From a virus: a DNA stretch of 64,000 nucleotides. The translations under genes and the position numbers were made by a program. Where the stretch lies: positions 12,497-76,496 of IMG/VR virus record IMGVR_UViG_3300044641_001047. One strand, 5' to 3'. Positions 1-30,685 of this stretch are shown here, piece after piece; within the stretch, counting starts at the first letter, position 1, and each line of letters begins with the position of its first letter. Under the pieces are notes generated by a model. That model was not told where the DNA came from, made no database searches, and worked only from the letters and a program-made list of their open reading frames with translations.

Positions 1-1868
1 GTCTCTCTACCAACTATCTTATTTTTAATCTGCTCTGTATTAAGTTTAACAACAGCAGCTTTAAATTCTTCTTTGGTTAATTTTTTATCTTCAAGTTGCT
101 TTTTTAACCTCTTATACCTATCATCTTTTCTTAGATTAAATGTCCGTTGATTGTCGGTCATGTTCTGAACAAGATCTTTAATCTCCTCGTTTATTCCATC
201 TGTCATGTAGTCAAGTAGAAGGTCAACTTGGAGGGGAATGGCTTCGTCTATATAAAATTTTTGCTGACGCTCTAGTTTATTTATAGATTCTAAAAGCTTC
301 TTTTCTACTACTGATAATGCAGAGTTAGACTTATTGCTTTTAGCAAGCTCTTCTTGCTTACTTATAATAATGTTCTTTAGTCTCCCTATAACACTATCTT
401 CAGCAAATGTCCCAGCTGTTAGATCTTTAATATTATTCCCAAGATTAAATAACTGATTAGATAATGCATGTTTTTCTGCTTCCTCTAATTTATCGTACTT
501 GCCATCAAATCTTTTTATTTTATCTACGATCTCTTGGTTCTTAGCTGTTACACGGCCTACATAGTTTACAAATCCTGCAAAAGCTTCTATCCTATTGAGG
601 GTTGTATATTTGTTTTTAGATTGTTCATCTTTAAACTTATAACGTAACTCTTTGAATTTCTCAAGCTGAGCCTTTAGTTCTATAACATCCTCATCACTCT
701 TGAAAGGATTAGACTCAAGTTTATCTAGCTGTTGTTGTAAAGTTTCACTTGTTACTTCAAGGAAGTCATTAAACTCCCTCATCTTTTTATCGAGTTCTCT
801 ACTTTGCTGAGTTTCCTTTGAAAGCTCCCCTACAAGTTCTTCTTTAGATAATCTACGACTAAGAAGTTTGGTAACCAGCTGATCTACTGCAGAGTCTGAT
901 ATCCCGAATATCTCTTTAATTCTTCTGATCAGTTTGTTAACAGCTGTCTGCAATTTGTTACTAGGCTTAGCAACTCTTTTAGCCCCTTCTCTTCCCAACA
1001 TAGTTATAAGAGTTTCTTTTGCCGCAGCCTCATCTGTAAATCCATAGACTTCTTTAACCTCTTCAAACAATGCAGACTTTTTTGCAATCTCCATTGCTTG
1101 TTTAACCAATGGGTTGTCTACCCCAAGAAGGTCTATAAGTATATGACTGAACTCGTGTATGTGAGTATCAGCTGTCATCTTCAGAGGGTTAAGAACTACC
1201 TTAGCAGTATTCTGATCTACTCTGCTAACCTCTCCCTTACTGTCTATATCGGTGCTAAACTCTACCTCGACAGTCATACCTACCTCAGCAAATGTTTCTT
1301 TAAGATGCTGTAGCTGTTCCTCAAGGTTTGGAATGTCTTCAAATGGAGCATCACTCTTAAGAGCCTTAGATTTATCAATAGGTTTTTGCTCAAACAATGC
1401 CAGCTGCTTCCCTTCTCTAAGAGATTTAATCTGAGAGAGTATAATATTCTCATCCTTAGTAGGAATAACAGCTTGCCTTGAAACAGATATAGCTCCTTCA
1501 TAATAAGACGGATTAATAGACAGTTTTGCTGAATACCCCCCTAATTTAGTATGTCTTATAGAATCAGGGATAAGAAAATTTTGAGACATCGATTTAAGTG
1601 AATTCCCAAAATGCAGTAGTACTGTATTGTTTATTCTCTCAACTATGGTTCCTTTTCCATTTGGGTGCCCTTTATATATAATGCTTCCGTCATTATCGTA
1701 TTTAAAGTGTTGTGGGAATCCATCTACCAAAGCATCTTTGATAATTCTGTTTGCCTTATCTAAAGGAACAGATGAGTCTAAGCTCTCAATTGCACTGAAA
1801 ACTTTTTCATATGCTGGAGATGGCTCTGGATATTGACTTAAATATGTTTCGTAAACTTTACAGCCCAT
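1..1868 (-). CDS. Giant ejected virion protein (third of the vRNAP cluster), N-terminal part, with zincin-like HExxH motif; truncated by window edge
   Basis: Absent from the ORF track (no stop inside the window). Manual translation from ATG 1868: MGCKVYETYLSQYPEPSPAYEKVF...VVLNPLKMTADTHIHEFSHILIDLLG; HEFSH at ~1143-1157. Directly follows the vRNAP gene. Confidence 0.85.
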   Translation of the reverse strand, partial: MGCKVYETYLSQYPEPSPAYEKVFSAIESLDSSVPLDKANRIIKDALVDGFPQHFKYDNDGSIIYKGHPNGKGTIVERINNTVLLHFGNSLKSMSQNFLIPDSIRHTKLGGYSAKLSINPSYYEGAISVSRQAVIPTKDENIILSQIKSLREGKQLALFEQKPIDKSKALKSDAPFEDIPNLEEQLQHLKETFAEVGMTVEVEFSTDIDSKGEVSRVDQNTAKVVLNPLKMTADTHIHEFSHILIDLLGVDNPLVKQAMEIAKKSALFEEVKEVYGFTDEAAAKETLITMLGREGAKRVAKPSNKLQTAVNKLIRRIKEIFGISDSAVDQLVTKLLSRRLSKEELVGELSKETQQSRELDKKMREFNDFLEVTSETLQQQLDKLESNPFKSDEDVIELKAQLEKFKELRYKFKDEQSKNKYTTLNRIEAFAGFVNYVGRVTAKNQEIVDKIKRFDGKYDKLEEAEKHALSNQLFNLGNNIKDLTAGTFAEDSVIGRLKNIIISKQEELAKSNKSNSALSVVEKKLLESINKLERQQKFYIDEAIPLQVDLLLDYMTDGINEEIKDLVQNMTDNQRTFNLRKDDRYKRLKKQLEDKKLTKEEFKAAVVKLNTEQIKNKIVGRE

Positions 1869-1878
1869 GTTATTTATT

Positions 1879-4800
1879 TTAAAGCATACATATTTGGGTG
1901 ATGTCCCCTTTTTTCTCTTCGTCCATTGTGTTATCTAAGAAGACATCTAACTTCTCTATTACAGAATCTATTGGCTTACTTTTTCCTACAACTCTTGGGT
2001 AAAGAGTAGCTCCCCCAACAAGGTGTTTTTTTTCGTTAGTAGTTTTACCTAACACCATATACTTTCCTATTTTTCCATCTTTTGATATACTACCAAGAAT
2101 ATAAACATCAGAGTCTGTTTTAGTTCTAACTACAAGAGCTGAAGGAATAGATGAGTATTCTTCTAAATTGATATCAATTTCTTTATCAGGCTTTCCTACT
2201 TCATCAAAGTTTTTACGTTGTAAAAGGTTACTTCCACCAGGTCTCATCTCCCCAAATATTCTTAGGAATCTAAGCATATCCTCCCCCTCAAAGTACCTAC
2301 CATTAGCCATTTTCATTGCCTGCTCATGAAGATAATCAGAAATGCTTATAGGTTCTAGATCTTCAGCGGTTCTATCCATAGGTTGGGTAAGGAATCTTGG
2401 GGGTAACAAGTCTGCAAAGTTAAATGGAGTTTGCTTAAATCCATTGGCAATAAGTGTATGCATTGCTAATTTATTACCTAAAGTCTTGATATCTTCAACT
2501 CCTTTCTTACGTTCAGCTATTTCTTTTTCTGTTGCCCCCTTTCTAAGTCTTGGTAAAAACTTCTCAGGTCTGTACAACATATCAGTAAGGTCATTGATGA
2601 TTCTATCCTTCTCATTTACTGTATACTGTTGCTGAGCATCAAACTGCAAGCTTCTAAAAGTCTTACTATTCTTGTTATCAGGATCTTCAGTAATCTTTAC
2701 AAAGAACTCATTACCTGCAAGCTTAGGGTATTTCTTTAAAATCATGGACATCTGCTTAAGCAGTGTTGACTTGTTTTTACTTGTACGATAGTTCTCATCA
2801 CTATACCCTTTACCAAAAAATGCTTTGAGTGGAGAGTCCTGCCTTGTAAGAATTGTGAATATTATTGCAGAGTTTATATCTCTGTGCTGATCACTTGTAA
2901 ATGTATTAGTAGGTGGAGCTGCTATCTTTCTCAAAGTATTCTTAAATCCTATGAACTCAGATGATAATGTCATTGGGAACAGTATTGATGCTACCCCTAA
3001 TGTTTCAGATATCATTTTATAGTAGCCTCTCTGTAATCCATATGGAGAATCTTCATCAAGAACTTGTTCGATTATACTCTCTGACATATTTCTTCCGTAT
3101 AGAGCTATAGGGGCATTGTCTACAAATCCATCTTTAGGGTTTGCAAACTTTTCCATTCTCTCCATATAGGCCTGCATAGCTTCTACTCTATTCAAACCAT
3201 CCATGCTATCAGGAGTAATGACCTTAAACATTTCTACAATCTGTCTTCCTCCAGAGTACATCTTCATAAAGTTTCTTAAAGCTACTGCAGGGGGTAGAGT
3301 AAAATTCATTATATCCTCTCTAGACATTGCAGTAGTCCTTTCAATTCTTTTATAATTATTTGCTATCTCAGTCTCTGGGTTTATACCGTGTAGAGCAGCA
3401 GCTTGACGATACCCATTGTTAACCATTGCAAGGTTATTGTTGTACTTATCAGACATTATGTTTACAAAATCTCTGATGATAGGCTGGTTAAGGAAGAAGT
3501 GCATTAACTCTGTATCACCGTAGAAATTAATCCATAGAACTTCTACAGGGAAAGTAACTTCATTATCATTGATGATGTAGTGGAATGGATTCTTAGAAGC
3601 ATCCACGGCAGCATTAAGATATCGAGAGATAATTTTATCTGTAAATTCCAAGTGATCGTATGCTGCAAATGGGTTATCTACTTGAGTAAGAAACTTAGTA
3701 TTTATTTTCTCTCCTGCTATCTTAACAGCAAATGAGTCAAATAGATTTATGTCTAAGTGTTGAGCTACATTCCTTCCTGCAAGAGCATTAGACCACTTAC
3801 CTCTCAGCTTGTTACCAAGAAGGTTTCTAACAGCACTGTTGGTATGGTACATACCCCCTGTAAACATTGGGATATCTTCAAGGTCAGGCATTTTTTCAAG
3901 GATACTGTCTTTGATATTACCAAGTGCAGCTGTGTCCAAAGGGCTAAGAGTTTCAGAGAAGTGAATAGGGCTACTGAGTACAGCCTCCATTGTATCAATG
4001 AAGATATTATTAAGCTGCTTCTCATTTAGTTTTGTAACCAATTCAGGATTGCTGGCAAGTTCTGCATAATTAGCAGATTCTTTAACCATAACCCCATCCT
4101 TCATGCTAACCTCAGGGAAAAGCAAAAACATTTTATCGACGTCAAAGTCAGATCCCATAAGCTTAACAAGCTGTGGTGGGACTACAATTGCTTTAGCATA
4201 ATTATCAGGTAGGACAGCTTTAATCTTTAGAATAACCATAGATGCCTTATCCTGGTTGGGGATACGATAACCAATAATTCTTCTAAGCTCTTCTGGGATG
4301 TTATCTAAATTGATCTCCCCTTCAGGTAAGTTAAACTTTCTAAGTACATCAGCTCTTATCATTATCTCTGCATGTGCCAATCTGACTCCATACTTTGTAT
4401 TGTTTGGATCATCTTCAATCTCCAAGAACTTAAGGGTTTCATTAGTCTCAAACCCACCAAGAGCTGCAGTCTGCACAGCCTCTGTCCCAGATAGCCTTTG
4501 CTTAAATACATTGTTGTTGTATATGCTAAGCAAAGCTGATTGAAACTTTTTACCAAATACAGGGTAGTCAAGTGGAATTGCAAATCTTGGGATAAGAGTA
4601 TCAGGATCTATAGTGATATCAAGAGCATCTAGATAGTTCTGGCTCATATCTCTTTCGATAGCCTGCTTCTCAAGAATGGTACGTATATTTTTAAGCAGTT
4701 CTAGCTTAGCATTTATAAAATCTTCTGAGCTCTTAAGGTGACTGATATTAACCTTACCCTTAACCTTATGCCCTTCTACAAGATTAGCAATTGCTTTACG

Positions 4801-7800
4801 GAATTTATCTAATCCAATCTCCTTATCTACACTTTCCATATCCCGTCGAATCTTCTCTTCGATGGCATTGTGGTAGATTTGAGTCATTACATCTCCGACA
4901 ACTTCTACAGAACCTTCTAGACCTGAGTTATAGTAATAGAGTCCAGCAGGATCTACGTTAGCAATAGAGTTTTTCTTAGCCTGTCTGTTAAAGATTACAT
5001 CACTTGTACCTTTAGGATCAGGTATTATCTGTGGGAATCTTAGTTTAGAAGAGTCTTGTTTAATGATTACAACGTCTTCCATCATACCAGGTCTGTACCT
5101 TTCTACCTCTTGTCCATTCTCATAAACAATCTCAGTATTCTTTGACAGATTGTAAGGCTCAGTCTTTAAACTCTTCTTAGTACTGAATGCATTAAATACA
5201 TGGACAGGCTGCAGATCATTTCTTCCTGCATAAGCCCCAGACAACTCCATACGTTGTCTTACATCATCCATGATTGGGAAGCTTCTTGTATAATCTTCTA
5301 CAAGTGGGAAGTAGGCATTCTTCTGAATCTCTGTCAGAAGTACTCCACCTACACTTTTAACATCTTCATAGTAAGGCTTAAGAGGTTTAATGATTACAGG
5401 ATCTCCAGCTTTCATTCCTTTAGGGACAAAGTTTTCTTGATATACAATACCTCCAATACTTCCTCTTTTCTTATATGCTCTGAATGCTTCTATCTCATTT
5501 TCTCCCCACTCTCCTAATCCTTCAGCTATGTATCGATACATATCAATACTGATAATAGCCAGACCATCGGTATCTTCAAAGGTGCCAGGGTTATAGCCTA
5601 GCATGAATGCTATGTCATCATCTGTATATGGGTCTCCAGTCTTAGGGTTAATTATAGATTTAAGTTTTCCCATAGTACGAGATACATACGATTTTGAAAA
5701 CTCTTCTATTGCTTTAGTTATATTACCCCTTGGGTCAAGGAATGTAGATTCATTGAATTCTGGGATCATACCATACTCTTCAACTCCGTCAGCTGGTTTT
5801 ACTCCGAGTGTACCTCTGATAGCAGTCAATGTACCTGGAGTTCCAAGTAGTCGTTGACGTTTAGTAAAGGCATCTAGAGAAGCAAAAGCAGCTCTGTTAC
5901 CACGAGTAAGCTTTATAATTTCTGCAGTCCCTACATCCTCATGAATAATAAACTCTTTTAGAAGACCTTTTATTGTAAGGACTTTCTTCATCACAGCAGT
6001 ATCTTCTTTACTCAGTCCTTCCAAAGCTTCTGCTTCATCAGCTTCCTTTAACTTTGAAAACCTTTTAGCTTCTTTAAGATCTACATCCCCATATCTTCCA
6101 GACTGTATAATCTTTTTTGCCATTACTTCTGCAGCTTGATCGTAGAATAGAGTAAGATTTGAAATCATCTGTGACATTAAATTCTCAAACTGCTTTAAAT
6201 CTCCAGTAGGAGTTTCACCAGCTTTTTTAACTTTAATGTAATCTTCTACATAGTCAGACATTTTCATCTGAACCCCATTAGATTTAATCATATAGTCCTG
6301 GACAATCCTTTCACCAGTCTTACTATTAATTCCATCTAATTGCATGTACTTACCTGACCCGTCTATACCAAGCATTTTACCTGTATGATAATCAATAGCT
6401 TTAGTAGCATTTGGATCATCAATAGTCCTTTGAGCTTGTCTGATTCTCAATAGGTCTTGAAGAATCATATCTCTAAATACCAGAGAATTAGTCTTATAGT
6501 CTAGTTTAGTGTTACCATGGCCTCTAAGTCTAGGCATAAGCATAAACTCTAGATCCTCACGGTCTGCTTGAGTTGGAATAGCACAATAGAAATAATCTTC
6601 TTTTCCATTATTTATAAAGTGATACAGCCTTGTAAATATGTGGTCAATAGTATTGAAGTTTCCATATGCTTCTCCCTCTGCCTCATCAGCTCTTTTGATT
6701 ACGTCTGCACTTACAGTACGTAGATCACTGAGATATTGAGGGTTTAGGATCATATGTCTATAGATCATACTATATCCATCCGTACCACTTTTATGATCAT
6801 GAATGTGAAATGGGTCAGTCTTTTGCAACTTAAGTGCATTCTCCCCATTCTTCTCTACATCGGTTTTAATATTAATAATTATGTCGTCAACAGGAGTTCT
6901 ATGTTGAATAGGCCATATAGCCTTCCCTTCTCCATTAACGTGGCTCTCTGCAGAGTTAGACATAAACAGTGGGGCCAAGCTTCCTAGGAACTTTACACCA
7001 GATTTCTCTGTATCAAAGAATGGTGTTATATCCTTTTTAGTGTCTCCAAAAAGAGGAACCCCTTTAGAGTCTGTCTCAACTTCAACAAAAGAACTAATTA
7101 TCGAGTAAAGACCAGAGTTTTCTACGATATAATCGAAGAGGCCTTTACCATTTAATTTTTCAAGACCCTTTTTCTTCTGCCTTACATACATACCTGCACT
7201 CATAAGACTCTGCAGGTTGTCAATTGTCTCATCTATATTGTAGTCATTCCCAAAGTTAATTCCTAAATTCCATAAAGTGTTAGCTAAAGCTATCACTGCT
7301 ACTGATGGCTCCCCTTCTTTACTAGGAAGAAAGTCTTTGTCCTGACTTGATCTCTTCTTACGAATCTCTGAAAGAGTTTTAAATGACTCTTTTACTGCTT
7401 CAAGTTTACTTTTATTTACAGTAAATGTAGATTTATCTTCTCCCTGTTCATTTTCTTCTACATTTTTATTGTATAGGGCTCTACTTTCAGAGTTTTCAAT
7501 TGCCTGCCCATCTACTTGTATTGCATTATTTCTCCATTTTCTTACAGCTTTCTGCTCTGTAGTAGTAACATTAGAGTCAAAGATTTTACTCTTCTTCCCC
7601 ATAATTACAATATGTGTCTTATTTACTGTAGTAGCAAAGTTGCTGAACAGTGCAGACTTCTCCTTAGGACTCATTCTTCTTATGCCACGAGCAATAGATT
7701 TATAGTCATCTCTATGCAGGGCAAAGTTTTCAAGCTTTATCATCATTTCCTCAAACGTCCCTGTATCTGACCACAGTTCTAATAGCTGCTTGTATACAAA

Positions 7801-9327
7801 ATTAGGATCATGGTATTTAGGACGATTGCTAAATATTGCATTCTTCTTTTCTGTTGTGATAACTTTCCCACCAGACTGCACTGTCTCTGTAATAGGGAAA
7901 CGACGTAGCATTATCTTGACAGCTTGAGATAATCTTTCTTTGTGAGGTCTCTCAATTCTTTGCTGATTATGCAAGTGCTCTTGAGCTTCTTTGGCATCCA
8001 GCTCTCTAATTTCATCGTCCCCTTCTTCAATGTCTACAAGGGTGACTTTTCCACTTTTGATTATATAGCCATAGTTTCTGAGGTTTCTTTCAACCTCATC
8101 TCTCCATGCTCTGGTTATTACGTTGCCTGTCTTAGCCTCATACTTACCCCTCCAGTTATCAATAACTTTGTAGATATACTCTCGAATCTGTCTTTGGTTC
8201 TTTGCAGCAGCCAGATCTTCTTCTGACATACCTTCTACAATTGGAGGGAAGTTGTTTAACTTAAGTCCAAACTTAGCTTTGTGCTCTTTAAAAACTTTAG
8301 CAGCCTCATCCATCTTATCTTTGAACTCAGGCCTCTTAGTATTCTCATAAGCAATTCTGTACTTATTGTATTCTTTTTCTAAAGTAAGTGCCTCTCTGAG
8401 TGGAGTGATATCTTTTCCCTTAGCTTCTCTTCCATCCTTGTATCTATAAAGATGGCTAAGCAATCCATGTACAATAGTTCCAGCAGTTTTATTATCCCCA
8501 AGTATGAGATTGATATCTGGGTTCTTCCAGTTTTGAATATCCTGAACCACCATATCAGAGATACCTTCTATGATCTCCTCTACAACTTCAGATGGCATTC
8601 CCTGTACGTGCATTTCAGGACTAATGTCACTCTTCATAAGCTCAGGGTTACGAAGAATCTTTCTCCCCAAAAGGTCGTAGTTGGTTTTGCTATTTCTAAG
8701 AAGAGAGTAAGTCTGCTTAAGAGTTACATTATCTGTAAGCATAGCTTTTATGAAATCAAATAGGTCACTAAACCACTGCTTAATCTTCTGTGGAATAGTC
8801 TTACTGCTTTCTCCCTCTGTAAGCATGTGCATTCTGAATCCTTCAGCCATCTTCTCCTCGAGTACAAGGTTGTAGGCTTCTTCATCAGATATATCGGGGA
8901 ACTGATTCTTTCTAGCTGTTACTTCTTCATCGGTTGGCTTACCAAATTCTCTCGATGTCTCAGCATATAGGAGAGATCTCTGAGCATCAGACAGCATTGT
9001 ACGGAACATCAAGTGATATCCCTCGTGGAACTCAGCACCAACCTCTGCAGCCTTCCATACATTAATTGCCCCGTTGGTTACGTGGCCATGCACAATTCTG
9101 TTACCAATTTGCTTTATGTAGTCGTAATAAAATATTTTATCCTCACCAAAGGTGTTTTTAACCCATGCAGTAGCTTTTTCTCTTCCTATACTTTCTGGAG
9201 TTTGGCCATAAAATTCAAGGGGCACTTCTCCGTTATATATACTCCATAGAGTATACGGATTTTCTACACCAGATTCTACCAGCTCTTTCCATTCAGGAAG
9301 ACTTTCAATAGGACAAGATATACCCAT
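1879..9327 (-). CDS. Virion-packaged DNA-dependent RNA polymerase (crAss-like), with N-terminal zincin-like domain
   Basis: 2482 aa. GYRIPNQ...MGSDFDVDKMF carries the catalytic DxDxD motif (4135-4149); TDG motif upstream; HEGYH (9013-9027) followed by EEKMAE. Confidence 0.92.
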   Translation of the reverse strand: MGISCPIESLPEWKELVESGVENPYTLWSIYNGEVPLEFYGQTPESIGREKATAWVKNTFGEDKIFYYDYIKQIGNRIVHGHVTNGAINVWKAAEVGAEFHEGYHLMFRTMLSDAQRSLLYAETSREFGKPTDEEVTARKNQFPDISDEEAYNLVLEEKMAEGFRMHMLTEGESSKTIPQKIKQWFSDLFDFIKAMLTDNVTLKQTYSLLRNSKTNYDLLGRKILRNPELMKSDISPEMHVQGMPSEVVEEIIEGISDMVVQDIQNWKNPDINLILGDNKTAGTIVHGLLSHLYRYKDGREAKGKDITPLREALTLEKEYNKYRIAYENTKRPEFKDKMDEAAKVFKEHKAKFGLKLNNFPPIVEGMSEEDLAAAKNQRQIREYIYKVIDNWRGKYEAKTGNVITRAWRDEVERNLRNYGYIIKSGKVTLVDIEEGDDEIRELDAKEAQEHLHNQQRIERPHKERLSQAVKIMLRRFPITETVQSGGKVITTEKKNAIFSNRPKYHDPNFVYKQLLELWSDTGTFEEMMIKLENFALHRDDYKSIARGIRRMSPKEKSALFSNFATTVNKTHIVIMGKKSKIFDSNVTTTEQKAVRKWRNNAIQVDGQAIENSESRALYNKNVEENEQGEDKSTFTVNKSKLEAVKESFKTLSEIRKKRSSQDKDFLPSKEGEPSVAVIALANTLWNLGINFGNDYNIDETIDNLQSLMSAGMYVRQKKKGLEKLNGKGLFDYIVENSGLYSIISSFVEVETDSKGVPLFGDTKKDITPFFDTEKSGVKFLGSLAPLFMSNSAESHVNGEGKAIWPIQHRTPVDDIIINIKTDVEKNGENALKLQKTDPFHIHDHKSGTDGYSMIYRHMILNPQYLSDLRTVSADVIKRADEAEGEAYGNFNTIDHIFTRLYHFINNGKEDYFYCAIPTQADREDLEFMLMPRLRGHGNTKLDYKTNSLVFRDMILQDLLRIRQAQRTIDDPNATKAIDYHTGKMLGIDGSGKYMQLDGINSKTGERIVQDYMIKSNGVQMKMSDYVEDYIKVKKAGETPTGDLKQFENLMSQMISNLTLFYDQAAEVMAKKIIQSGRYGDVDLKEAKRFSKLKEADEAEALEGLSKEDTAVMKKVLTIKGLLKEFIIHEDVGTAEIIKLTRGNRAAFASLDAFTKRQRLLGTPGTLTAIRGTLGVKPADGVEEYGMIPEFNESTFLDPRGNITKAIEEFSKSYVSRTMGKLKSIINPKTGDPYTDDDIAFMLGYNPGTFEDTDGLAIISIDMYRYIAEGLGEWGENEIEAFRAYKKRGSIGGIVYQENFVPKGMKAGDPVIIKPLKPYYEDVKSVGGVLLTEIQKNAYFPLVEDYTRSFPIMDDVRQRMELSGAYAGRNDLQPVHVFNAFSTKKSLKTEPYNLSKNTEIVYENGQEVERYRPGMMEDVVIIKQDSSKLRFPQIIPDPKGTSDVIFNRQAKKNSIANVDPAGLYYYNSGLEGSVEVVGDVMTQIYHNAIEEKIRRDMESVDKEIGLDKFRKAIANLVEGHKVKGKVNISHLKSSEDFINAKLELLKNIRTILEKQAIERDMSQNYLDALDITIDPDTLIPRFAIPLDYPVFGKKFQSALLSIYNNNVFKQRLSGTEAVQTAALGGFETNETLKFLEIEDDPNNTKYGVRLAHAEIMIRADVLRKFNLPEGEINLDNIPEELRRIIGYRIPNQDKASMVILKIKAVLPDNYAKAIVVPPQLVKLMGSDFDVDKMFLLFPEVSMKDGVMVKESANYAELASNPELVTKLNEKQLNNIFIDTMEAVLSSPIHFSETLSPLDTAALGNIKDSILEKMPDLEDIPMFTGGMYHTNSAVRNLLGNKLRGKWSNALAGRNVAQHLDINLFDSFAVKIAGEKINTKFLTQVDNPFAAYDHLEFTDKIISRYLNAAVDASKNPFHYIINDNEVTFPVEVLWINFYGDTELMHFFLNQPIIRDFVNIMSDKYNNNLAMVNNGYRQAAALHGINPETEIANNYKRIERTTAMSREDIMNFTLPPAVALRNFMKMYSGGRQIVEMFKVITPDSMDGLNRVEAMQAYMERMEKFANPKDGFVDNAPIALYGRNMSESIIEQVLDEDSPYGLQRGYYKMISETLGVASILFPMTLSSEFIGFKNTLRKIAAPPTNTFTSDQHRDINSAIIFTILTRQDSPLKAFFGKGYSDENYRTSKNKSTLLKQMSMILKKYPKLAGNEFFVKITEDPDNKNSKTFRSLQFDAQQQYTVNEKDRIINDLTDMLYRPEKFLPRLRKGATEKEIAERKKGVEDIKTLGNKLAMHTLIANGFKQTPFNFADLLPPRFLTQPMDRTAEDLEPISISDYLHEQAMKMANGRYFEGEDMLRFLRIFGEMRPGGSNLLQRKNFDEVGKPDKEIDINLEEYSSIPSALVVRTKTDSDVYILGSISKDGKIGKYMVLGKTTNEKKHLVGGATLYPRVVGKSKPIDSVIEKLDVFLDNTMDEEKKGDITQICML

Positions 9328-9329
9328 GT

Positions 9330-12300
9330 TTATTTTTTCTTTTTATTACAAAGTTTATTTACAACTTCCTCTTGTATTTTTTTAGCTTCTTTTTCATTAA
9401 TATCTATATCCAACATTTGTTTTACAAAAAATACAAAAGAGGCATTGTCCATAGCACCCATTTGAATTATTTGAGCTTTTAATTGAGCAGCACCATCACC
9501 CGATGGGCCATTTGAAGCTTTTGCAGATATTATAGATTTTGCAATATTATCCTTAGTAATCTCACCTCCGTCCTCAGTTGAAGTATCTTCATCCTCATCT
9601 TCATCTTCTTCAACTTCTCTTACCTTCTTAGTAATATTCTTTACAGGACTCTTCTTTTTAGAGTGGTTGGCAATAGCTGGATCGGAGCTTTTCTTAGCCT
9701 CTTTGTAGGCAAAGCTTACTTTTTTGTCTAGTACGTCTCCAAAATTAAGATTCAAAGTAAACTTCTTTTCTACAAAGTTACTAACTTTTAAGATAGTTCC
9801 ATCATCATCATACCTTAAAGGTATAAGTAAGGTACTTCCTTTTCTAACCATTGTAGATACATTGTTCTGTTTAGCATGCCCGTTGAACATATAAGCATAA
9901 ACACTTAGCTGTGCACCATGCTGGTCTCTCTTTGATCTACCATACTTAGTCTCCTCGTAGTTTTCAAGTCCAGAAGCTGTAAGAGTTTTTATATCATATA
10001 TACGGTACTCCCCTTTTCTATCCTTAGTAAGAATGTCAAAGGTTCCAGCTATGTTTGGGTAGTTAGGATCAGTGTTGTATACAACCATCTCTACAGCAAT
10101 TACTGTTTCTCCTCTTCCCCTTAGCATGCTTTGGATAGCTTTAGCTTGAGTTATAAGGTCGAGATAAGCTACTGAGGACACACCAGCTGGTTTAGTAGCA
10201 GGCTTACCCATAAGTAGGTTTTCAACTAAAGAGTGTACTAACTTACCAGCAGATGATGAGGCTTTCTGAGTTTCAGCAGATCCAGTAAATGGTTCTGATG
10301 TCATCTTGGATGCCCTTTCGTATTCCTCCCCATTGATAATGTAATGAGTTTCCTCCCCTGTCACGGGATCTTTTTTCATTTCTTCACGGTGTTGATTCTT
10401 CTTTATATCAGTAAGAATCTCTACCATAGGATCCCCTTTCTCCTCTTCTACCTCAGCAATAGTTCCACTAAGTCCTTGGCTTTTAATCTTTTTGCCAACA
10501 ACTACTTTTTCGTCATCTTCTTCTGTCTCTACAGTTTTAGTTCTTCTACGATTGATAGCCTTTTCCAGAGAGCTTGAATTGCTATCAGTATCTTCTTGTT
10601 CTTCTTCCTCTTCCTCCTCTATTCTCTTAGCTACTTCTCCAATTTCGTCATCATCTAGCAAAGCATTAGTAGAGTCAACTTGGTTGTCCTCCTCATCCAT
10701 ATCGGATTCGTTTGTATAATCCTCCTGCTCTTTAACTAAAGGTTCTTGTTTGGTAATCTTAGCTTTAGTTACTGTTCTAGAAGTTGTTGGCTTTTCATTT
10801 TCTGCAGCCTGTGCCTTGAATCCTTTTTCATCTGTAATCTCCCCAAAGTTCATCACCACATCAAAGTATGGGGAGAATGTTTTAGGGTTAAGATACACAT
10901 CAGAGCTAAGTATACCTGAGTGTCCCTGATCTTTTTCCATATCAGAGATTTCATCAGGGTGAGTTAAATAGTCTAAGTAAGAAGCATATACTAAGCCAGT
11001 TACTTTACTTTCGTATTCGGGGTTTTCAGTTAGAAGGTTAATATCTACTTGATACCTTCTCTTCATTATAGCCTCTTTAAATGCAGAAGCTATTGATCCC
11101 ATATGAGCAGTCCAGTCACTTCTTCCTTCTATTGGTTCAAAGTTTAGACCTCCTTCTTCACCTCTTACTGCTTCTACAAATTGGAATTTAACAAAGCTAT
11201 CAGGTTCAGTTAAAGCTAGAGCTAATTGGTCAGAGCTAATAGTAATATAAGTTTCTGCAGAAGGTAGCCAGAAGGTATAGCCTCTTGGAGCTTCTGGGTC
11301 AGACTTCTCACCATATACTTGTTCAAAAATTAGGTTCCTATTTGCATCATCAATAGCAGCTTCTGCAACTTCGTTGAAACCTACAATCTCTGCTACATCT
11401 CCAGCTCTATCATCTGTAATAGCTTCTACTACTGCATTGTATCCAACCTCAGTCATTTTCTTGGTAGTAGCCCTTATATAAGACAGATCTCCATTTGGGG
11501 TACGAACCAAGATTGCCACTTTACCTAAGTCAGCAGTTGACAATCGTGACAGCAAGTCACCTGGGATTGTTTCATCCTCTTTAAGAACATCCCCTCGGTT
11601 TGTCACCTCCCACTTTGGTTCTTTTTTGTAGGTTCTAGCAACAAGCAATGTAGGGGTATAAAGTATATTCCCATCTTCATCTACTGGGACAGGATCAAAG
11701 AAGAATACATTGCCATCCTCAGTCGCTGCATTAGCAATGTTCTGAGAGTCTACATATTTATTAGTAAGAATGGTTGTAGGAATTTTGCCGTTATCCCAAA
11801 GATTGTAGATAGTCTCCCTATCCATAGATCTGCTAGGATTAGAAGGGTTATAACCTTCAAGCAATCCAACTCTTTTAAATCCATCTTTTGTTCTAACTGC
11901 TACAAATATTGGAATGTTTTTCCAGTATTCTGACTCAGATACATTTGGATTATTTTTTACAAATTTCTGCCACCACTCAGTTTCTGGATTAACTTCAAAT
12001 CGTACTTCTGCACCATTTTCTACTATGTCAGAATCAGTCAATAGCTCAGGGAAAATTTGAATTGGAACCCATTTACCATTTTTTAATTCAAACTGTTGTC
12101 TTCCATCTTTGCCATTAGTTCCATAGTAAGAACTATTAGGAATCGGAGTACCATCCTCGTCAACAAGAATATTATCATAACCGTTAGCATACTCATGTTG
12201 GGTTTTAATTACTGCGATGCTACTCTGGTTCTCTGAATTTTTAACTTCTTCATGAACCGTTTTCTTTCTAAATTGAATGTTACCCTCATCCTCTTCTGGA

Positions 12301-15300
12301 TCTGAATCATCAGGCGTCTCTTCTTCTTCCGTTTCAAAACTTTTTGAATTGAATATATCTTGTGTTTCTCCAGTTTCTATGAATACTGGGTTGTCAATTA
12401 TTTCAGGGAGTAATGGTGCTACTTCATTTACGTCCACTGTTTCGCCTTCAGGTACTTGAACAGCTCCTTGATTCGTTGTTCCAGATCCTTGTTCTTGAGC
12501 AAGTTGCGAAGCTCTTTGGGAGTCTTGTACATCTTTGCTAGCTTGACTTGATTTTCTATATTCATACTCTTCGGTTAACTTGTTTTTATGACTCTGTTGA
12601 ATTTCTCTTTCAGCTCTTGCAACTTCTAAATCTTTTGTAAGCTTTTCAATCTTTTCTCCGTTTACAGGAGAAGCCATTCCTAGTTTTATACTTGCATCTA
12701 ATGCTGCAATTTGCTGCTCAAGCCCTATAATAGTTTCGTTTGCAAGATCGATTAAAAGTTCAGCTTCCCCAATTTTATTTTTAATTTCATTCTCAGCTTC
12801 CTCAGACATTTGACCACCTTGATCTTCCGTAGGTTCACTAACAGGAGACAACTGTGTTCTTTTAAAGTAATCTTTAGTTATGGCTTGGAATGCTTTAAGA
12901 GTTGTAGAATACATTGCTCTTGCTCTCTGCACATCTGGATCTTGGTTCATTTCGGCCATGGTCTTACCCTGCCTCATGAACTTCTCCTTAGCCATATTAT
13001 AAACAGAAAGGATGTCAAGAAGATGAGTTCTATGACTATCCATCAACTTCTGTAAAGCTTTATCAGTTATAACATTAGGATCGTACTTAGCCTTACTTCT
13101 TAATGCCTCAGATAAATTTTGCAATGCATTAAGTCTAGATTGAATCTGCTTTCTAAGTTCTACTTCACTAAGTCCTAAGCTTTCTATAGTTCCTTGAGAC
13201 TGATAAGCCATCAGGATTATCTCTGCAAGTTCTTTTGCAACAGTATCTTTAAACTCAACTGTTTGGTTTTGCTCATTGTGCAGTACTACTTGAGATACTA
13301 TAATAGAACCTGTAAGAGCACTAGCGGGTTTATATTCTGTTATACCCTCTGTCTTAATATCTTCTAGCATCTGTGGATAAGATGCAGCATGCCTATCTAT
13401 TGTCTCATCGGATACATTTGCTCTGTTAACTCCTGCTGCGATATCTGCTTTTATTCTTTGTTTAGCTAATTCAGCATTTAAAGGCATTAACTTATACTGA
13501 ATATTAGCACCAGGTATTGCTTTTTTAACAGCCTCTATAAACGGTCTTCTTTTTTCTTTAGTTAAATTGGTGGTATCAAATACCACCTGTTTACCATTCT
13601 TCACAGCTTCTACTGCTCTTTTAGCAGCTTCAATGTAAATTTCTTTATCTTTAGATTTATCATTTATATCTCCTGTAAACTCAGCTCTCATATCATCAGG
13701 AGAAATAACTACTAAATTTTCTTGAGGTAAACTTTTTATAAAAGTAGATTTCCCACTTCCAGAAGTTCCTATAGGTAAAATAATATCAGCTTTAGTAGTC
13801 GTAGAGGTGCTGCTTGTTTTAGGTTTAGAAGAAGTAATCTTTTTACCTAATTGTTGTTCTACATGCTTTCCAATTATGTCAACAAATTCATTTGCTAACT
13901 GATTAGTAAGTGCAGCATATCTTTTTTCTACAGCTACAGTTCTTCTATCAGCAGAAGATATATCAGTAGTATTTATTTTACTTAACTCTCCTGCTAAAGG
14001 TCTTAATGCATCTAGTCTTTTTTTATCCTCTTCACTAAGAAAATCAAACTCATTAAGATTTAAGTCTGCTAATACAATTAAATTATCAGCAACTTTTCCC
14101 ATTGAAGCTTTAAAAGCATTTAATCTACCTTTAGGCCTAGCTCCTTCATAAAAATCAGATGGCAATACTACTTTAGCATTTCCATAGCCATCTAATCTTT
14201 CATTAAGTCCTTCTATAGGTGTTTTTGTGTTATCATCTGCAGCAGGAGTTTCAGACTGCATGTCCCATTCATAGCCATACCTAATAGCATCTACTGGGTT
14301 TTCATTAAGGTTCTGATATACTGTCCCGTTAACTCTTATTGTTCTTCCATCGGTACTAAGTAATGCAAAGCTATTTTCATAAACCTTCCCACTTAAATCT
14401 GGATCTGCTTTCTCATCAGCTTCTTCAGAGAATCCTTTCTTAAGTGCATCTTCTGCTTCTTTCTTAGCAGCTGCTTCAGCAGGAGTTAACTCTCCTTCTT
14501 TTATATCTTTCTGCTCAAGACTTTCATTTTTCTTAGCTTCAAGAACAGCAAGTAGTGCTGCAGCTTTAGCAGGAGATTCTTCTTCAATACTTTCAATATC
14601 TGCAACTAACTCTTCAAGAACCTCCAGTGGGATGTCTTGATAGTCTTTCATGTACTTATCCTCTATAGCCTTAAGCTCTTTATATTTCTTTCTAACCTTA
14701 GCTTTCATTTCAGGACTAAGGTTTTCATGATCTATAAGTTCATCAAGTTCTCTAGTAGAATCTGCATTGTCAACAATTGAGTCAGCTTCTTTATTTGACT
14801 TTGCTACTTTAGCTCGTTGCTCAGCAGCTTGTTTAGCAGCTAGAACAATTTCTCTTTTTTCTGGAGATTTTATCAGCTCGTCAAATGCAGTAGATGCAAG
14901 TTCTCTTGTATATATTCCTGTAATAAAGTCAGCAAGAGCCTTATCAAAGTCCATCTTCTGCAGCTTATCTAAGGTTTCAGATTCTTCTACTGCTGTCCTA
15001 AGAGCTCCAGTTAAACTTTCATTCTCTTTAATATTCTTCTTCTTTGCAGCCTCTTCCGTGGTTGGGTCAGGCTTTGGTTCCCCTTCTTTCTTCTCTTGCT
15101 CCTCTACATCACTAACACTTACGTCAACCAAAGATTTAGGGAGAACTAGATTACCCTGTGCATCTGCTGTTATTTGGTTTCTTTTTATTAGAGTTACAAG
15201 TTTATTTCTGTCAAAATTTTTAAGAGCTGGAGATAGAGATACTAGTTTTTCATATGCATCGTTAATCTCCTCATCTCTAGTCTCCATACTAATCATGTTA

Positions 15301-17270
15301 GTAAGGAGTATATTTTTAAGTCTTTGATTGTATAGATCTTGGGCAGCTTTTTGAATTTTCTGCTCTTTGTTCATGGTTAGTTTAGCAAGTCCAGATTGAT
15401 TAGGGCTCATAAATTGAATAATGTTATCCAATCTTTTCCCCATATCTGAATACTTCTTCATCTCTCCTTTCCACTCTTCTACAATCCCTGACTGAGTTTT
15501 ACCTCCTGATTGCTCCAGTAATGGCTTAGACTTATCATAGCCATTTAAATCCATGAAGTCAGCTTCAGGCATTTTGGCCATGTCATCTAGTTTCTCATAA
15601 GCTAGATCTATAGCATCGAGATTATCAAACATGATTGCATGCTGAGCCATGAAGTTTTTACGTAGCTCGTTTGCAAGCTTGTAGTTACCAAGATCAGTAG
15701 CAGCTTTTAGAGCAGCAGAGAATTGTGCTAATTCCTTTTTCTGCTCAAAGCTCTTTCTCATGTTTAAGAAAGTCTCAGAGTTTGTAATGGCCAACAGCTT
15801 TTCTGTATTAGCTTTAACCATTGCTCTTTGTTTAGCAGCTGTTCCAAATGATGTGCTGGTTGCACCCATACCTCCACCAATAAGAGCACCTAGCAGCATG
15901 CTCTCTATTCCATCTGCAGTTCCAAAGGTTTTAGATAGCCCTCTTACTGCAGCTCCTGTCATATCTTCTACCCCAGAATCAAATTTATTCTTGTAGTAAT
16001 CTATTGCAGTCTCTCCAATCATGAACTGAGCACCTTCTTGGAAAGCCTCTGTTAAAGAATTCTCATAGATAGGGGCTGTATATTTTTGAGCTCTATTTAA
16101 AAATCTTCCAACTCCCGTTGTTGGAAGAGATACTATTCTTTTACCTGCTTGGTCTAAAACAGTTTCTGCTGTAGCTCTTTCCCCAATTTTAACTCCTCTT
16201 GCAGCATTGCCAAACATTAAAAGATTGCTAGTCATAAGAACAGGCATATTCCACCCAAAAGTAAAGTTCTCTACAGCTCTAGCTTCTTCATTTATCCTCT
16301 CTCTATCACTAGCAGGCATATCCTCTAATGACATTCCTGGGTTATTCTCAAGCCACTCAGACTCTCTTTCCTGAATAAATTGTTTAGACTTTTCTCTAGC
16401 TTCTACAGAAGACTCAGCAAGAGACATCATGGCCCCTACTTCTAGAGTTTTAGCAGCATTTAAGGTTCTAGCTATATTCCCATATTTAGCAATATCAGCG
16501 GTAAGTTTTGTACCAGTAGCTATCATTTTAGAGGCAGCATATATATTCTTCATAGCCTCCCCTGTAGACACAAGTTTACCTACTTGTCCTGCTCTTCCTG
16601 CTGCAGCCATAGCTTTACCAGCTAAATTAACACCTCTTCCTAATAGCCCAGCTCCACCACTCATCCATGCAGTTGCTAATGATCCTAGTGAATATCCTAA
16701 TCCATTGGCAAATTTATCTGTCCAAAAGTTAGCACTTCCTAAGTTATCCAGCATGCTACGGTCTGGATCTAACTCTGCTTTAGTGTAGTAGTGTGGAAGG
16801 TTTTCACTCATCCATTCATTTGCACTATCTACACTTCTTCCTACAGGATTATTTGCATATGTACCTCCAGCAAGCATAGAGCCTATTCCCCCGATAATAC
16901 CTATGGTATTTTCTGCTACTGCCCCTACTATAGTGGCCCCCATTTTAAGAGCACCGTATCCTAACTTTTGACCAATGCCTTGGTTCTCTGCTCGAATCTC
17001 ATTCCAGTCTGCATATGGACTAAGAGGGACTTTATAGCTAGCATAGTTAGCTATTGGATCAGTATAGACATTTGTAAGATCTATAGATCGTGCTTGTAAG
17101 TCTAGACCAGAAAGTTCGTATGGAGATTCCTTAGCCTTAGGGGCAAGTGGTTCACCTACAAATTCTGAGAAGCTACTTAGAGCATCTTTTGGCTTAGATA
17201 ATTCTTTTACTGGTAGTCCAGTAAACTTACTAAAACTTTCTAATGGTGCACTTTCTGTTGGTTCTGCCAT
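9330..17270 (-). CDS. Giant ejected (cargo) protein with N-terminal hydrophobic Gly/Ala helices, inserted P-loop kinase domain and C-terminal PD-(D/E)xK nuclease domain
   Basis: 2646 aa. GTSGSGKST...SPDDMR...VVFDTTNL (13330-13790); GKLVH...IAGTFD...IYDIKT...HGAQLSVY (~9750-10350). Position matches the crAss ejection cluster. Confidence 0.85.
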   Translation of the reverse strand: MAEPTESAPLESFSKFTGLPVKELSKPKDALSSFSEFVGEPLAPKAKESPYELSGLDLQARSIDLTNVYTDPIANYASYKVPLSPYADWNEIRAENQGIGQKLGYGALKMGATIVGAVAENTIGIIGGIGSMLAGGTYANNPVGRSVDSANEWMSENLPHYYTKAELDPDRSMLDNLGSANFWTDKFANGLGYSLGSLATAWMSGGAGLLGRGVNLAGKAMAAAGRAGQVGKLVSTGEAMKNIYAASKMIATGTKLTADIAKYGNIARTLNAAKTLEVGAMMSLAESSVEAREKSKQFIQERESEWLENNPGMSLEDMPASDRERINEEARAVENFTFGWNMPVLMTSNLLMFGNAARGVKIGERATAETVLDQAGKRIVSLPTTGVGRFLNRAQKYTAPIYENSLTEAFQEGAQFMIGETAIDYYKNKFDSGVEDMTGAAVRGLSKTFGTADGIESMLLGALIGGGMGATSTSFGTAAKQRAMVKANTEKLLAITNSETFLNMRKSFEQKKELAQFSAALKAATDLGNYKLANELRKNFMAQHAIMFDNLDAIDLAYEKLDDMAKMPEADFMDLNGYDKSKPLLEQSGGKTQSGIVEEWKGEMKKYSDMGKRLDNIIQFMSPNQSGLAKLTMNKEQKIQKAAQDLYNQRLKNILLTNMISMETRDEEINDAYEKLVSLSPALKNFDRNKLVTLIKRNQITADAQGNLVLPKSLVDVSVSDVEEQEKKEGEPKPDPTTEEAAKKKNIKENESLTGALRTAVEESETLDKLQKMDFDKALADFITGIYTRELASTAFDELIKSPEKREIVLAAKQAAEQRAKVAKSNKEADSIVDNADSTRELDELIDHENLSPEMKAKVRKKYKELKAIEDKYMKDYQDIPLEVLEELVADIESIEEESPAKAAALLAVLEAKKNESLEQKDIKEGELTPAEAAAKKEAEDALKKGFSEEADEKADPDLSGKVYENSFALLSTDGRTIRVNGTVYQNLNENPVDAIRYGYEWDMQSETPAADDNTKTPIEGLNERLDGYGNAKVVLPSDFYEGARPKGRLNAFKASMGKVADNLIVLADLNLNEFDFLSEEDKKRLDALRPLAGELSKINTTDISSADRRTVAVEKRYAALTNQLANEFVDIIGKHVEQQLGKKITSSKPKTSSTSTTTKADIILPIGTSGSGKSTFIKSLPQENLVVISPDDMRAEFTGDINDKSKDKEIYIEAAKRAVEAVKNGKQVVFDTTNLTKEKRRPFIEAVKKAIPGANIQYKLMPLNAELAKQRIKADIAAGVNRANVSDETIDRHAASYPQMLEDIKTEGITEYKPASALTGSIIVSQVVLHNEQNQTVEFKDTVAKELAEIILMAYQSQGTIESLGLSEVELRKQIQSRLNALQNLSEALRSKAKYDPNVITDKALQKLMDSHRTHLLDILSVYNMAKEKFMRQGKTMAEMNQDPDVQRARAMYSTTLKAFQAITKDYFKRTQLSPVSEPTEDQGGQMSEEAENEIKNKIGEAELLIDLANETIIGLEQQIAALDASIKLGMASPVNGEKIEKLTKDLEVARAEREIQQSHKNKLTEEYEYRKSSQASKDVQDSQRASQLAQEQGSGTTNQGAVQVPEGETVDVNEVAPLLPEIIDNPVFIETGETQDIFNSKSFETEEEETPDDSDPEEDEGNIQFRKKTVHEEVKNSENQSSIAVIKTQHEYANGYDNILVDEDGTPIPNSSYYGTNGKDGRQQFELKNGKWVPIQIFPELLTDSDIVENGAEVRFEVNPETEWWQKFVKNNPNVSESEYWKNIPIFVAVRTKDGFKRVGLLEGYNPSNPSRSMDRETIYNLWDNGKIPTTILTNKYVDSQNIANAATEDGNVFFFDPVPVDEDGNILYTPTLLVARTYKKEPKWEVTNRGDVLKEDETIPGDLLSRLSTADLGKVAILVRTPNGDLSYIRATTKKMTEVGYNAVVEAITDDRAGDVAEIVGFNEVAEAAIDDANRNLIFEQVYGEKSDPEAPRGYTFWLPSAETYITISSDQLALALTEPDSFVKFQFVEAVRGEEGGLNFEPIEGRSDWTAHMGSIASAFKEAIMKRRYQVDINLLTENPEYESKVTGLVYASYLDYLTHPDEISDMEKDQGHSGILSSDVYLNPKTFSPYFDVVMNFGEITDEKGFKAQAAENEKPTTSRTVTKAKITKQEPLVKEQEDYTNESDMDEEDNQVDSTNALLDDDEIGEVAKRIEEEEEEEQEDTDSNSSSLEKAINRRRTKTVETEEDDEKVVVGKKIKSQGLSGTIAEVEEEKGDPMVEILTDIKKNQHREEMKKDPVTGEETHYIINGEEYERASKMTSEPFTGSAETQKASSSAGKLVHSLVENLLMGKPATKPAGVSSVAYLDLITQAKAIQSMLRGRGETVIAVEMVVYNTDPNYPNIAGTFDILTKDRKGEYRIYDIKTLTASGLENYEETKYGRSKRDQHGAQLSVYAYMFNGHAKQNNVSTMVRKGSTLLIPLRYDDDGTILKVSNFVEKKFTLNLNFGDVLDKKVSFAYKEAKKSSDPAIANHSKKKSPVKNITKKVREVEEDEDEDEDTSTEDGGEITKDNIAKSIISAKASNGPSGDGAAQLKAQIIQMGAMDNASFVFFVKQMLDIDINEKEAKKIQEEVVNKLCNKKKK
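12428..12565 (-). CDS. Putative overprinted 45-aa basic helical protein nested in the 2646-aa gene
   Basis: Alternative frame MNIENQVKLAKMYKTPKELRNLLKNKDLEQRIKELFKYLKAKQWT*; A-rich upstream sequence with A at -3; the host frame here is an S/Q-rich linker. Confidence 0.45.
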   Translation of the reverse strand: MNIENQVKLAKMYKTPKELRNLLKNKDLEQRIKELFKYLKAKQWT

Positions 17271-29861: not shown

Positions 29862-30434
29862 TTAATCAAAGCATATCTCTCCTCTGTTGCATTTACCAAT
29901 GTTCTTTCTAGCTTTTTTGGTACGTTTAACATTAGGCCCTGTATCACGAGTTCCTGATGAACCCTTCTTCGGTTTCTTTGGACCCATAGCCTCCATCATA
30001 TCCATACCAGCATCGTTAGCACTAGTAGAATCAGACATGCCACCAAGACCTTTTTTGCCTGCAGCAGCCATTTCTTGAAACTTAGATTTGCCATACTTTT
30101 TTCTTCCTATAGAAGCAGCAATAGCTTTAGCAGAATCTTCCGATTTACCTTTACCTTTAAGTTTGCTAACCATAGCAGCAAATCTTCCACCACCACCTGG
30201 CTCCATAGACTTGCCACCAGACTTCTTCATATCTACACCTCTACCTTTCAATACGTCTGCTTTGGTTACTTTACCATCACCAGTAAGGTCAGGGAATCCA
30301 CCTGCTTTATACTTCATTCCACCATAGCCTTTTTTCATCAGCTTGTTTCCAAAAGTAATTTCTTTTGACTCCTCCATGAAGGAGCTTTTCTTTTTAGAGG
30401 ACTTCTTGCCTCCCTTTTTATACATTGGTACCAT
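29862..30434 (-). CDS. Lys/Gly-rich basic protein, probable internal DNA-condensing protein
   Basis: 190 aa; many K-x-GG motifs; FPDLTGDGKVTKADVL EF-hand-like motif. Confidence 0.55.
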   Translation of the reverse strand: MVPMYKKGGKKSSKKKSSFMEESKEITFGNKLMKKGYGGMKYKAGGFPDLTGDGKVTKADVLKGRGVDMKKSGGKSMEPGGGGRFAAMVSKLKGKGKSEDSAKAIAASIGRKKYGKSKFQEMAAAGKKGLGGMSDSTSANDAGMDMMEAMGPKKPKKGSSGTRDTGPNVKRTKKARKNIGKCNRGEICFD

Positions 30435-30445
30435 CTTATTCTTTA

Positions 30446-30685
30446 TTAACAGTTTTTACCACCCATTCTTTTCTTAGACTTACCTCCGAACTTAAGTTCC
30501 TTGGATTCCTCTAGAAAATTATACATTGATTTACCACCAGTCTTTTTAGAGGAGGCTTTAATTTTCTTTTCTTGTTTAAGCATCTCTTTAGTTGGTTCTT
30601 TACCAGAGCCTTTGTTTGCCCTGATATTATCCCATAGACCTCTTTGACTAGTAGAGCCATCAGCTCTTTTAAGCATTTTCTTCAT
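30446..30685 (-). CDS. Small basic hypothetical protein
   Basis: 79 aa; GLWDNIRANKGSGK; overlaps the upstream gene end. Confidence 0.6.
   Translation of the reverse strand: MKKMLKRADGSTSQRGLWDNIRANKGSGKEPTKEMLKQEKKIKASSKKTGGKSMYNFLEESKELKFGGKSKKRMGGKNC

Follow-up and report, generated by a model that had tools for sequence, protein, structure and literature searches.

Paired terminal cysteines at the junctions between separately encoded cargo proteins of crAss-like phages

In a divergent crAss-like phage, three giant proteins of the RNA polymerase-associated cargo have lost nearly all of their Cys residues and keep them chiefly at the termini that face one another. Across the order Crassvirales, these terminal Cys are present where the corresponding genes are split and absent where they are fused. 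The phage is represented by 64,000 nucleotides (nt) of IMG/VR record IMGVR_UViG_3300044641_001047 (positions 12,497 to 76,496; hereafter the window, meaning this whole stretch), which is part of a 76,496-bp single-contig genome. Its giant genes, A to F, form a minus-strand block, and all window features given below lie on that strand. The three proteins of interest are C, B (the putative virion RNA polymerase, vRNAP), and A. No phages are more abundant in the human gut than crassviruses. Comparison of split and fused gene arrangements indicates that neighbouring members of the trio are very probably held together by a physical junction at each Cys pair.

Terminal cysteines of the cargo trio

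Together, C, B, and A contain 5 Cys in 6648 residues, four of which lie at inner ends of the trio, at positions -6 of C, +5 and -3 of B, and +3 of A. Protein C (9330-17270; 2646 amino acids, aa), an orthologue of gp47 of phage crAss001, lacks Cys at its N-terminus and has a single Cys near its C-terminus, Cys2641 in KLCNKKKK (codon TGT, 9348-9350), the putative donor of the first junction. Facing it is Cys5 of protein B (codon TGT, 9313-9315), which lies in a C-P-x motif and would act as the N-terminal acceptor. Protein B (1879-9327; 2482 aa), the orthologue of crAss001 gp50 and phi14:2 gp66, carries at its other end Cys2480 in QICML (codon TGT, 1888-1890), the putative C-terminal donor of the second junction. 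The predicted acceptor is Cys3 of protein A, which begins with MGC (codon TGT, 1860-1862). Only the first 622 aa of A, the orthologue of crAss001 gp49 and phi14:2 gp65, are encoded in the window (3-1868); the full protein of 1520 aa extends past it to genome position 9802, has Cys3 as its sole Cys, and ends in a C-terminus without Cys. The fifth residue, Cys915 of B (codon TGT, 6583-6585), is internal and non-conserved. It is common only to the four closest relatives (70-80% identity, positions 915-918); a Cys also occurs nearby, at 919-936, in a few of the more distant relatives, and is missing from this region in most homologues.

These residues had been read by eye in an earlier note on this DNA, which listed the single Cys sixth from the end of the 2646-aa protein, the fifth, third-from-last, and one internal Cys of the vRNAP, the MGC start of the next protein, and the lack of Cys in two cargo proteins of 763 and 999 aa. 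All were confirmed, with their coordinates where these had been given. The two Cys-free proteins are D (17272-19563; 763 aa) and E (19569-22568; 999 aa), which by position are cargo proteins 2 and 1, respectively; E matches phrog_36695 (virion structural protein) and has a weak match to a glycine zipper. Proteins A to E together hold 5 Cys in 8410 aa (0.06%), compared with about 0.9% in the remaining proteins of the genome. Under random placement, the probability of finding at least four of the five Cys within 6 residues of the four inner ends is about 3e-10. The next giant protein, F (22580-28447; 1955 aa), has 5 Cys, all internal and none terminal. It matches phrog_15100 (virion structural protein) and, by position, is a muzzle-type tail protein outside the chain.

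Identity of the cargo block

Protein B is predicted to be the virion RNA polymerase of a member of Crassvirales. It contains the catalytic motif of a two-barrel RNA polymerase, GSDFDVDK (residues 1724-1731), with the core DFDVD at 4135-4149 (residues 1727-1731), and D1727, D1729, and D1731 are invariant in 30 homologues. The profile of a vRNAP alignment (A1) matches chain A of PDB entry 6VR4, which is phi14:2 gp66 (E=9e-64), and B alone matches crAss001 gp50 in a phmmer search (E=5e-25). The same method relates C to crAss001 gp47 (E=1e-29) and A to crAss001 gp49 (E=8e-45) and phi14:2 gp65 (8e-27). The closest database phage match to B has just 23-38% identity, over part of the vRNAP. Single-sequence phmmer of B against PDB yielded only noise, and a scan of IMG/VR with B as the only query found no close relative; Pfam and PHROGs returned no match for B or D, and Pfam none for A.

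Orthologues of these proteins are virion components. In crAss001 particles, mass spectrometry detected gp45 and gp46 (cargo proteins 1 and 2) and the RNA polymerase-associated gp47, gp49, and gp50, which were assigned to internal cargo zones (PMC10172136). The phi14:2 orthologues were likewise identified as virion proteins by mass spectrometry (Drobysheva et al., 2021; preprint 10.1101/2020.03.07.982082). Tail ring proteins 1 and 2 are encoded upstream of the C-B-A genes in the window. The catalytic motif, the matches to 6VR4, gp50, gp47, gp49, and gp65, the upstream tail ring proteins, and the presence of orthologues in virions together assign the window to the cargo block of a divergent Crassvirales member. 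By analogy, these proteins are presumed to be ejected, because their crAss001 and phi14:2 orthologues reside in the virion. Protein A also carries an HExxH zincin motif (HEFSH, 1143-1157, residues 238-242), which is invariant in 26 A-family members and fits the metalloprotease domain noted for orthologues of phi14:2 gp65. Candidate substrates are peptidoglycan, the vRNAP, and the chain itself.

Conservation across Crassvirales

The terminal Cys singled out by the earlier note are conserved in relatives, forming invariant columns in the alignments of all three families at identities down to 23-27% and occurring in nearly all loci with split genes. Thus Cys2641 is invariant in the C family and Cys3 in the A family. 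In the 30-member vRNAP alignment (23-71% identity), C5 and C2480 are as invariant as the catalytic aspartates; C2480 is also invariant in alignment A1. Nearly all of the 111 vRNAP homologues, whose identity extends down to about 24%, carry one Cys at positions 3-8 and a second at -1 to -6, with 0-2 internal Cys per protein. Homologues of C carry their only Cys at -1 to -6, never at the N-terminus, and homologues of A have a Cys at positions 3-5 in almost all cases and a C-terminal Cys in none. The layout of the window recurs in the two experimentally studied phages, from which it is separated by identities of only 23-35%. In phi14:2, the sole Cys of gp67 (1797 aa) is its last residue, gp66 (2180 aa) has Cys3 and Cys2179 only, and gp65 (1421 aa) has Cys3 only. 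In crAss001, the corresponding Cys lie at -3 of gp47, +5 and -9 of gp50, and +5 of gp49. All chain proteins surveyed amount to 391,693 residues, with 199 terminal and 108 internal Cys, and the 44 positional counterparts of cargo protein 2 (D) in relatives have 0 Cys in 32,819 aa. Lys and Arg are enriched beside both kinds of tip Cys (37-44%, compared with 13%), which fits reactive thiolates and lends weak support to a disulfide link.

In principle, the terminal Cys could be a product of chance, or a nucleotide-level by-product of tight gene junctions, for example of translational coupling signals. The coding ends do overlap initiation regions in the window, where B starts 2 nt past the stop codon of C and A starts 10 nt past that of B. 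Such an origin is nonetheless extremely improbable and is refuted by the following data. The figure of about 3e-10 applies to the window alone. In addition, the gene for gp47 of crAss001 lies on the strand opposite to gp50-gp49 and keeps its C-terminal Cys, as does the gp47-like gene of DAC15. In other lineages, the genes at a junction may overlap by 4 nt or be separated by up to 27 nt, the positions of the Cys vary, and no shared DNA cassette that might create splits was found at the junctions. The opposite-strand genes and the diversity of the junction DNA place the signal at the level of protein.

Two further observations concern the sequence context of the Cys. A Cys-Pro-Asn motif marks the vRNAP N-terminus in the clade of the window, in which B itself reads Cys-Pro-Ile (9307-9315); in lineages with fused C and B, Cys-Pro-Asn occurs instead at the A-type N-terminus (many loci, e.g., L057, L060, L062, L073, L082, L084, and L085). 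Because the motif moves to the A-type N-terminus when C and B are fused, it tracks the acceptor end and not any one protein. Separately, five Suoliviridae reference genomes (L083, L085, L086, L090, and L091) have 4-78 in-frame TAG codons per cargo gene. TAG reassignment in these lineages is known. The TAG-containing genomes keep the terminal-Cys rule and have more internal Cys (5-9 per protein).

Split and fused junctions

An alignment-based scan of IMG/VR gave 78 loci, and the addition of reference genomes of Steigviridae, Suoliviridae, and Intestiviridae (the last represented by genome cr3_1) brought the set to 87 loci with 76 distinct vRNAP open reading frames (ORFs); three reference genomes were read with TAG as Gln. 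Four architectures occur among these loci: three separate genes (C|B|A), either of the two single fusions (CB|A and C|BA), and a full fusion (CBA). The fused forms are proteins of 3200 to more than 6400 aa with their domains in the same order.

The presence of terminal Cys follows the state of each junction. The vRNAP ORF has an N-terminal Cys at 46/46 loci in which the C/B boundary is split and at 0/26 in which it is fused. Similarly, its C-terminal Cys is found at 70 of the 72 loci with a split B/A boundary and at none of the 9 with a fused one. One of the two misses, L068, results from a frameshift in the ORF, the final fragment of which ends in KKCK. The other, L073, is a positional exception that counts against the rule, its nearest Cys lying at -16. 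The partner proteins agree: every A-type N-terminus (61/61) and every C-type C-terminus (36/36) carries a Cys. Outer ends are free of Cys in all cases (60/60, 35/35, 24/24, and 8/8), the first two figures referring to the C-termini of A-type and the N-termini of C-type proteins. Each fusion (CB|A, C|BA, or CBA) is accompanied by loss of just those Cys that would flank the fused boundary, and any other pair is kept. CB fusions of 3600-5200 aa typically retain a lone C-terminal Cys, and the full CBA fusions of 5005, 5555, and at least 6415 aa have 0 Cys. These are encoded by single plus-strand ORFs at L055 (2043-17060), L036 (4031-20698), and L076 (1906-21150; at least 6415 aa), respectively, and are among the longest Cys-free proteins that the author of the analysis has seen.

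Loss of the Cys upon fusion, which the earlier note had put forward as a test of its proposal, was observed as predicted, over many independent fusion or fission events. On a FastTree phylogeny of the vRNAP core, the state of the two junctions changed at least 10 and at least 6 times. Some branches are long, so only pairs on well-supported branches were counted; in these independent pairs, junction and Cys states co-vary in 9/9 and 5/5 cases (14/14 pooled). In the sister pairs L051/L055 and L061/L053, both Cys are gone at the fused junction, and the helix that follows the N-terminal Cys-Pro-Asn is retained.

The single-junction lineages, which keep exactly the flanking pair, also reveal which Cys belong together. 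They indicate that neighbours are paired, the C-terminus of C with the N-terminus of B and the C-terminus of B with the N-terminus of A, that the two ends of B are not paired with each other, and that the four Cys do not form one site. Since full fusions need no Cys, the residues serve only at a break in the chain. Judged by sequence comparison, a Cys pair appears to be the functional equivalent of a peptide bond. The proposal that C-to-N links take the place of gene fusion is in this respect strongly backed with regard to pairing and substitution, while the disulfide chemistry that it also invoked rests on analogy.

The same series bears on the alternative that each tip Cys has a role of its own, either attaching a third partner (portal, DNA end, membrane, or lipid) or acting as a processing signal or a catalytic or regulatory residue. 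Such a role is brought to mind by the M-(A/G/S)-C N-terminus, which resembles acylation motifs elsewhere. It is, however, largely refuted by the fusion series and must be considered very unlikely: full fusions do without Cys, single fusions lose both Cys of the junction and keep the other pair, and outer termini never carry Cys. Moreover, no signal peptide or lipobox is present, and recombinant gp66 is active in dithiothreitol (DTT).

Two further loci, L021 and L044, looked like exceptions. In L021, a gap of 850 nt lies upstream of the vRNAP gene. In L044, a fourth link lies between the C-type and vRNAP genes (8273-9804, plus strand), comprising a GIY-YIG/NUMOD3 homing endonuclease gene and a gene for a 289-aa protein with Cys3 and a Cys at -2. 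This small protein, which shows a weak, sub-threshold match to ART-PolyVal (ADP-ribosyltransferase of polyvalent proteins), may exemplify a plug-in module and nuclease-driven gene splitting.

Related designs in other phages

The same single-Cys layout is found in cyanopodophage A4 (Anabaena phage A-4L, Saffermanviridae), likewise in large internal or ejection proteins encoded by consecutive genes. In its genome (KF356198), the upstream protein gp27 (1717 aa) has its sole Cys at -3 and the downstream gp26 (1114 aa) has Cys5 only. Cryo-electron microscopy revealed a disulfide between gp27 Cys1715 and gp26 Cys5, which stabilises the C-terminal helix of gp27 inserted in gp26 (PNAS 2025, PMC12002296). 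No match between A4 gp26, gp27, or gp28 and the crassvirus chain proteins was obtained with phmmer, and hhalign gave probabilities of 0.3% and 1.4%; the likeness appears to be one of design, not of family. In A4, only two proteins are joined, by one link, where the crassvirus chain has two to three, and no RNA polymerase is part of the A4 chain. In addition, the A4 bond was presented as a stabiliser of a pentameric ring and neither as a general rule nor as a substitute for gene fusion.

Strong suppression of Cys that includes the vRNAP is also known from N4-like phages (Schitoviridae), whose ejection proteins (N4 gp50 and DEV gp71-73) are Cys-free, which was ascribed to passage through the periplasm (PMC11445570). 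There, in contrast, the vRNAP consists of one polypeptide of about 3500 aa that has 0 Cys and no terminal pairs, which matches the fully fused crassvirus state. Finally, inter-subunit disulfides exist in purified crAss001 particles, in the tail and portal vertex (PMC10172136, Extended Data Table 2). These join subunits of the ring, the hub, and gp57 rather than cargo proteins, and are not head-to-tail.

The nature of the link

The arrangement is best explained by a chain linked head to tail. C, B, and A would constitute the RNA polymerase-associated cargo trio of a crAss-like phage, purged of Cys as are other proteins that leave the capsid via the tail and cross the periplasm. The four remaining Cys, 1-9 residues from the facing termini, would join the trio as C-(S-S)-B-(S-S)-A. 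The virion would then hold one connected unit, equivalent to the single polyprotein of other crassviruses, and the link would preserve 1:1:1 stoichiometry and order through packaging and exit. Because the disulfides would sit at the extreme ends, the unit would be nearly linear, and thioredoxin-type reduction in the host cytoplasm would uncouple it.

That the link is a disulfide is probable, mainly by analogy with A4. In keeping with this chemistry, each tip has one conserved Cys without a metal-binding motif, and disulfides occur in crAss001 virions, both in the tail and in the gp57 dimer (PMC10172136). In the crystal structure of phi14:2 gp66, the tips are the only untraced residues, and the recombinant enzyme is active in DTT; both fit exposed tips and an active reduced monomer. 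Passage of the linked trio through the tail as a thread, followed by reductive release, is a more tentative proposal than the disulfide itself.

Alternatively, the facing Cys of a junction might share a Zn, Fe, or Cu ion, aided by further ligands or by another copy of the chain, and form no disulfide. Such a metal clasp could assemble in the reducing cytoplasm, where metal thiolates are favoured over disulfides, and the pairing of Cys and their loss on fusion fit any two-Cys link equally well. Each tip, however, has only one conserved Cys, with neither a CxxC motif nor a conserved adjoining His or Asp. Lineages with one junction have two Cys in more than 5000 aa, too few for a normal tetrahedral site unless chains pair, and since these lineages work with two Cys, a single shared site of four Cys is unlikely. 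As the only solved case of the layout, that of A4, is a disulfide, a metal clasp seems improbable, if less so than an independent role for each tip.

Another reading accepts the disulfides and gives them a different purpose: they would hold an ordered assembly together in the capsid before ejection, in the manner of the A4 ring, without serial towing; the proteins might then separate before or during exit. Such a staple is favoured by the A4 case, in which the bond stabilises a C-terminal helix inserted into a cleft of the neighbouring protein, the two being part of a ring with five-fold symmetry about the portal axis. The idea is a real possibility, if less than an even one. Here the position of the Cys within 1-6 residues of the chain ends makes for a nearly linear join, and full fusions do the same job, which argues that linear connectivity is itself selected. 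In crAss001, moreover, no ordered internal assembly of the trio has been seen.

Several considerations weigh against the linked chain as a whole. Disulfides normally do not form in the bacterial cytoplasm, the site of particle assembly. Gut hosts are anaerobic, and the bond may therefore be made only once particles have left the cell, or never in nature. Neither a thiol oxidase nor a thioredoxin was found among 10 Cys-rich or Cys-tipped small proteins of the window, which yielded only tail ring proteins 1 and 2, DUF6321, DUF6171, and a CHAP domain. For crassviruses, the disulfide chemistry is argued by analogy. The A4 precedent is an analogy, as gp26 and gp27 have no detectable homology to the crassvirus proteins, and its bond staples an ordered ring rather than a demonstrated thread. 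The trio lacks clear density in reconstructions of crAss001 (PMC10172136). According to the published view, fused polyproteins are 'likely cleaved' to yield individual components; if so, there is less reason to suppose that connectivity is needed at ejection. That view sits uneasily with the Cys rule, since Cys pairs would be unneeded in split genes if separation were the goal.

Relation to published work and implications

Earlier publications describe the fused trio, the scarcity of Cys in ejected proteins, and a single disulfide-linked pair, that of A4. The fused 'polyprotein' form of the trio in some crAss-like phages was reported by Yutin et al. (2018), as cited by Drobysheva et al. The studies of crAss001 (PMC10172136) and phi14:2 (10.1101/2020.03.07.982082) do not mention the Cys of the trio proteins. 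A literature search, incomplete for subscription papers, found no description of the terminal-Cys rule in Crassvirales, of its polarity, or of its covariation with fusion. For the fused polyproteins, the literature assumes cleavage, whereas the Cys rule suggests that connection is selected and is restored by Cys pairs when the genes are split.

As a sequence rule that holds across an order, the pattern predicts covalent links in gp47-gp50-gp49 of crAss001 and gp67-gp66-gp65 of phi14:2. It bears on how the five crassvirus cargo proteins are packed, ordered, and delivered, accounts for the free splitting and fusing of the trio genes in evolution, and challenges the assumption that fused polyproteins must be cleaved. 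It also offers a candidate redox trigger for release or activation of the virion RNA polymerase, and the terminal-Cys layout can serve as an annotation marker for ejected cargo chains. Combined with the A4 case, it hints at more than one origin of disulfide coupling among ejection proteins.

On a broader and more doubtful reading, Cys-tipped termini would be portable 'redox snap-links' by which separately encoded modules are joined into one long protein train for injection. Conceivably, genes could in that case split, for example by homing endonuclease insertion as in L044, fuse, or gain effector modules with connectivity kept. Just as speculatively, reduction in the cytoplasm, by uncoupling such a train, might be the switch that activates an auto-inhibited virion RNA polymerase.

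Other features of the window

Protein C contains an insert related to AAA_33 and polynucleotide kinases (13377-13781, residues 1164-1298). Domains with 65-93% identity to this kinase insert occur in about 20 giant proteins of 1900-4500 aa (P0187-P0206) that are otherwise unrelated. Elsewhere, C is much less conserved: even relatives that are 76-91% identical align over just 38-50% of its length. The distribution looks like recent shuffling of the kinase module among cargo proteins.

Between the genes for tail ring protein 2 and ring protein 1, two small proteins without a Pfam match carry terminal Cys: one of 79 aa that ends in Cys (30446-30685) and one of 190 aa with Cys at -9 and -3 (29862-30434). 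Both may be part of the tail disulfide network known from crAss001.

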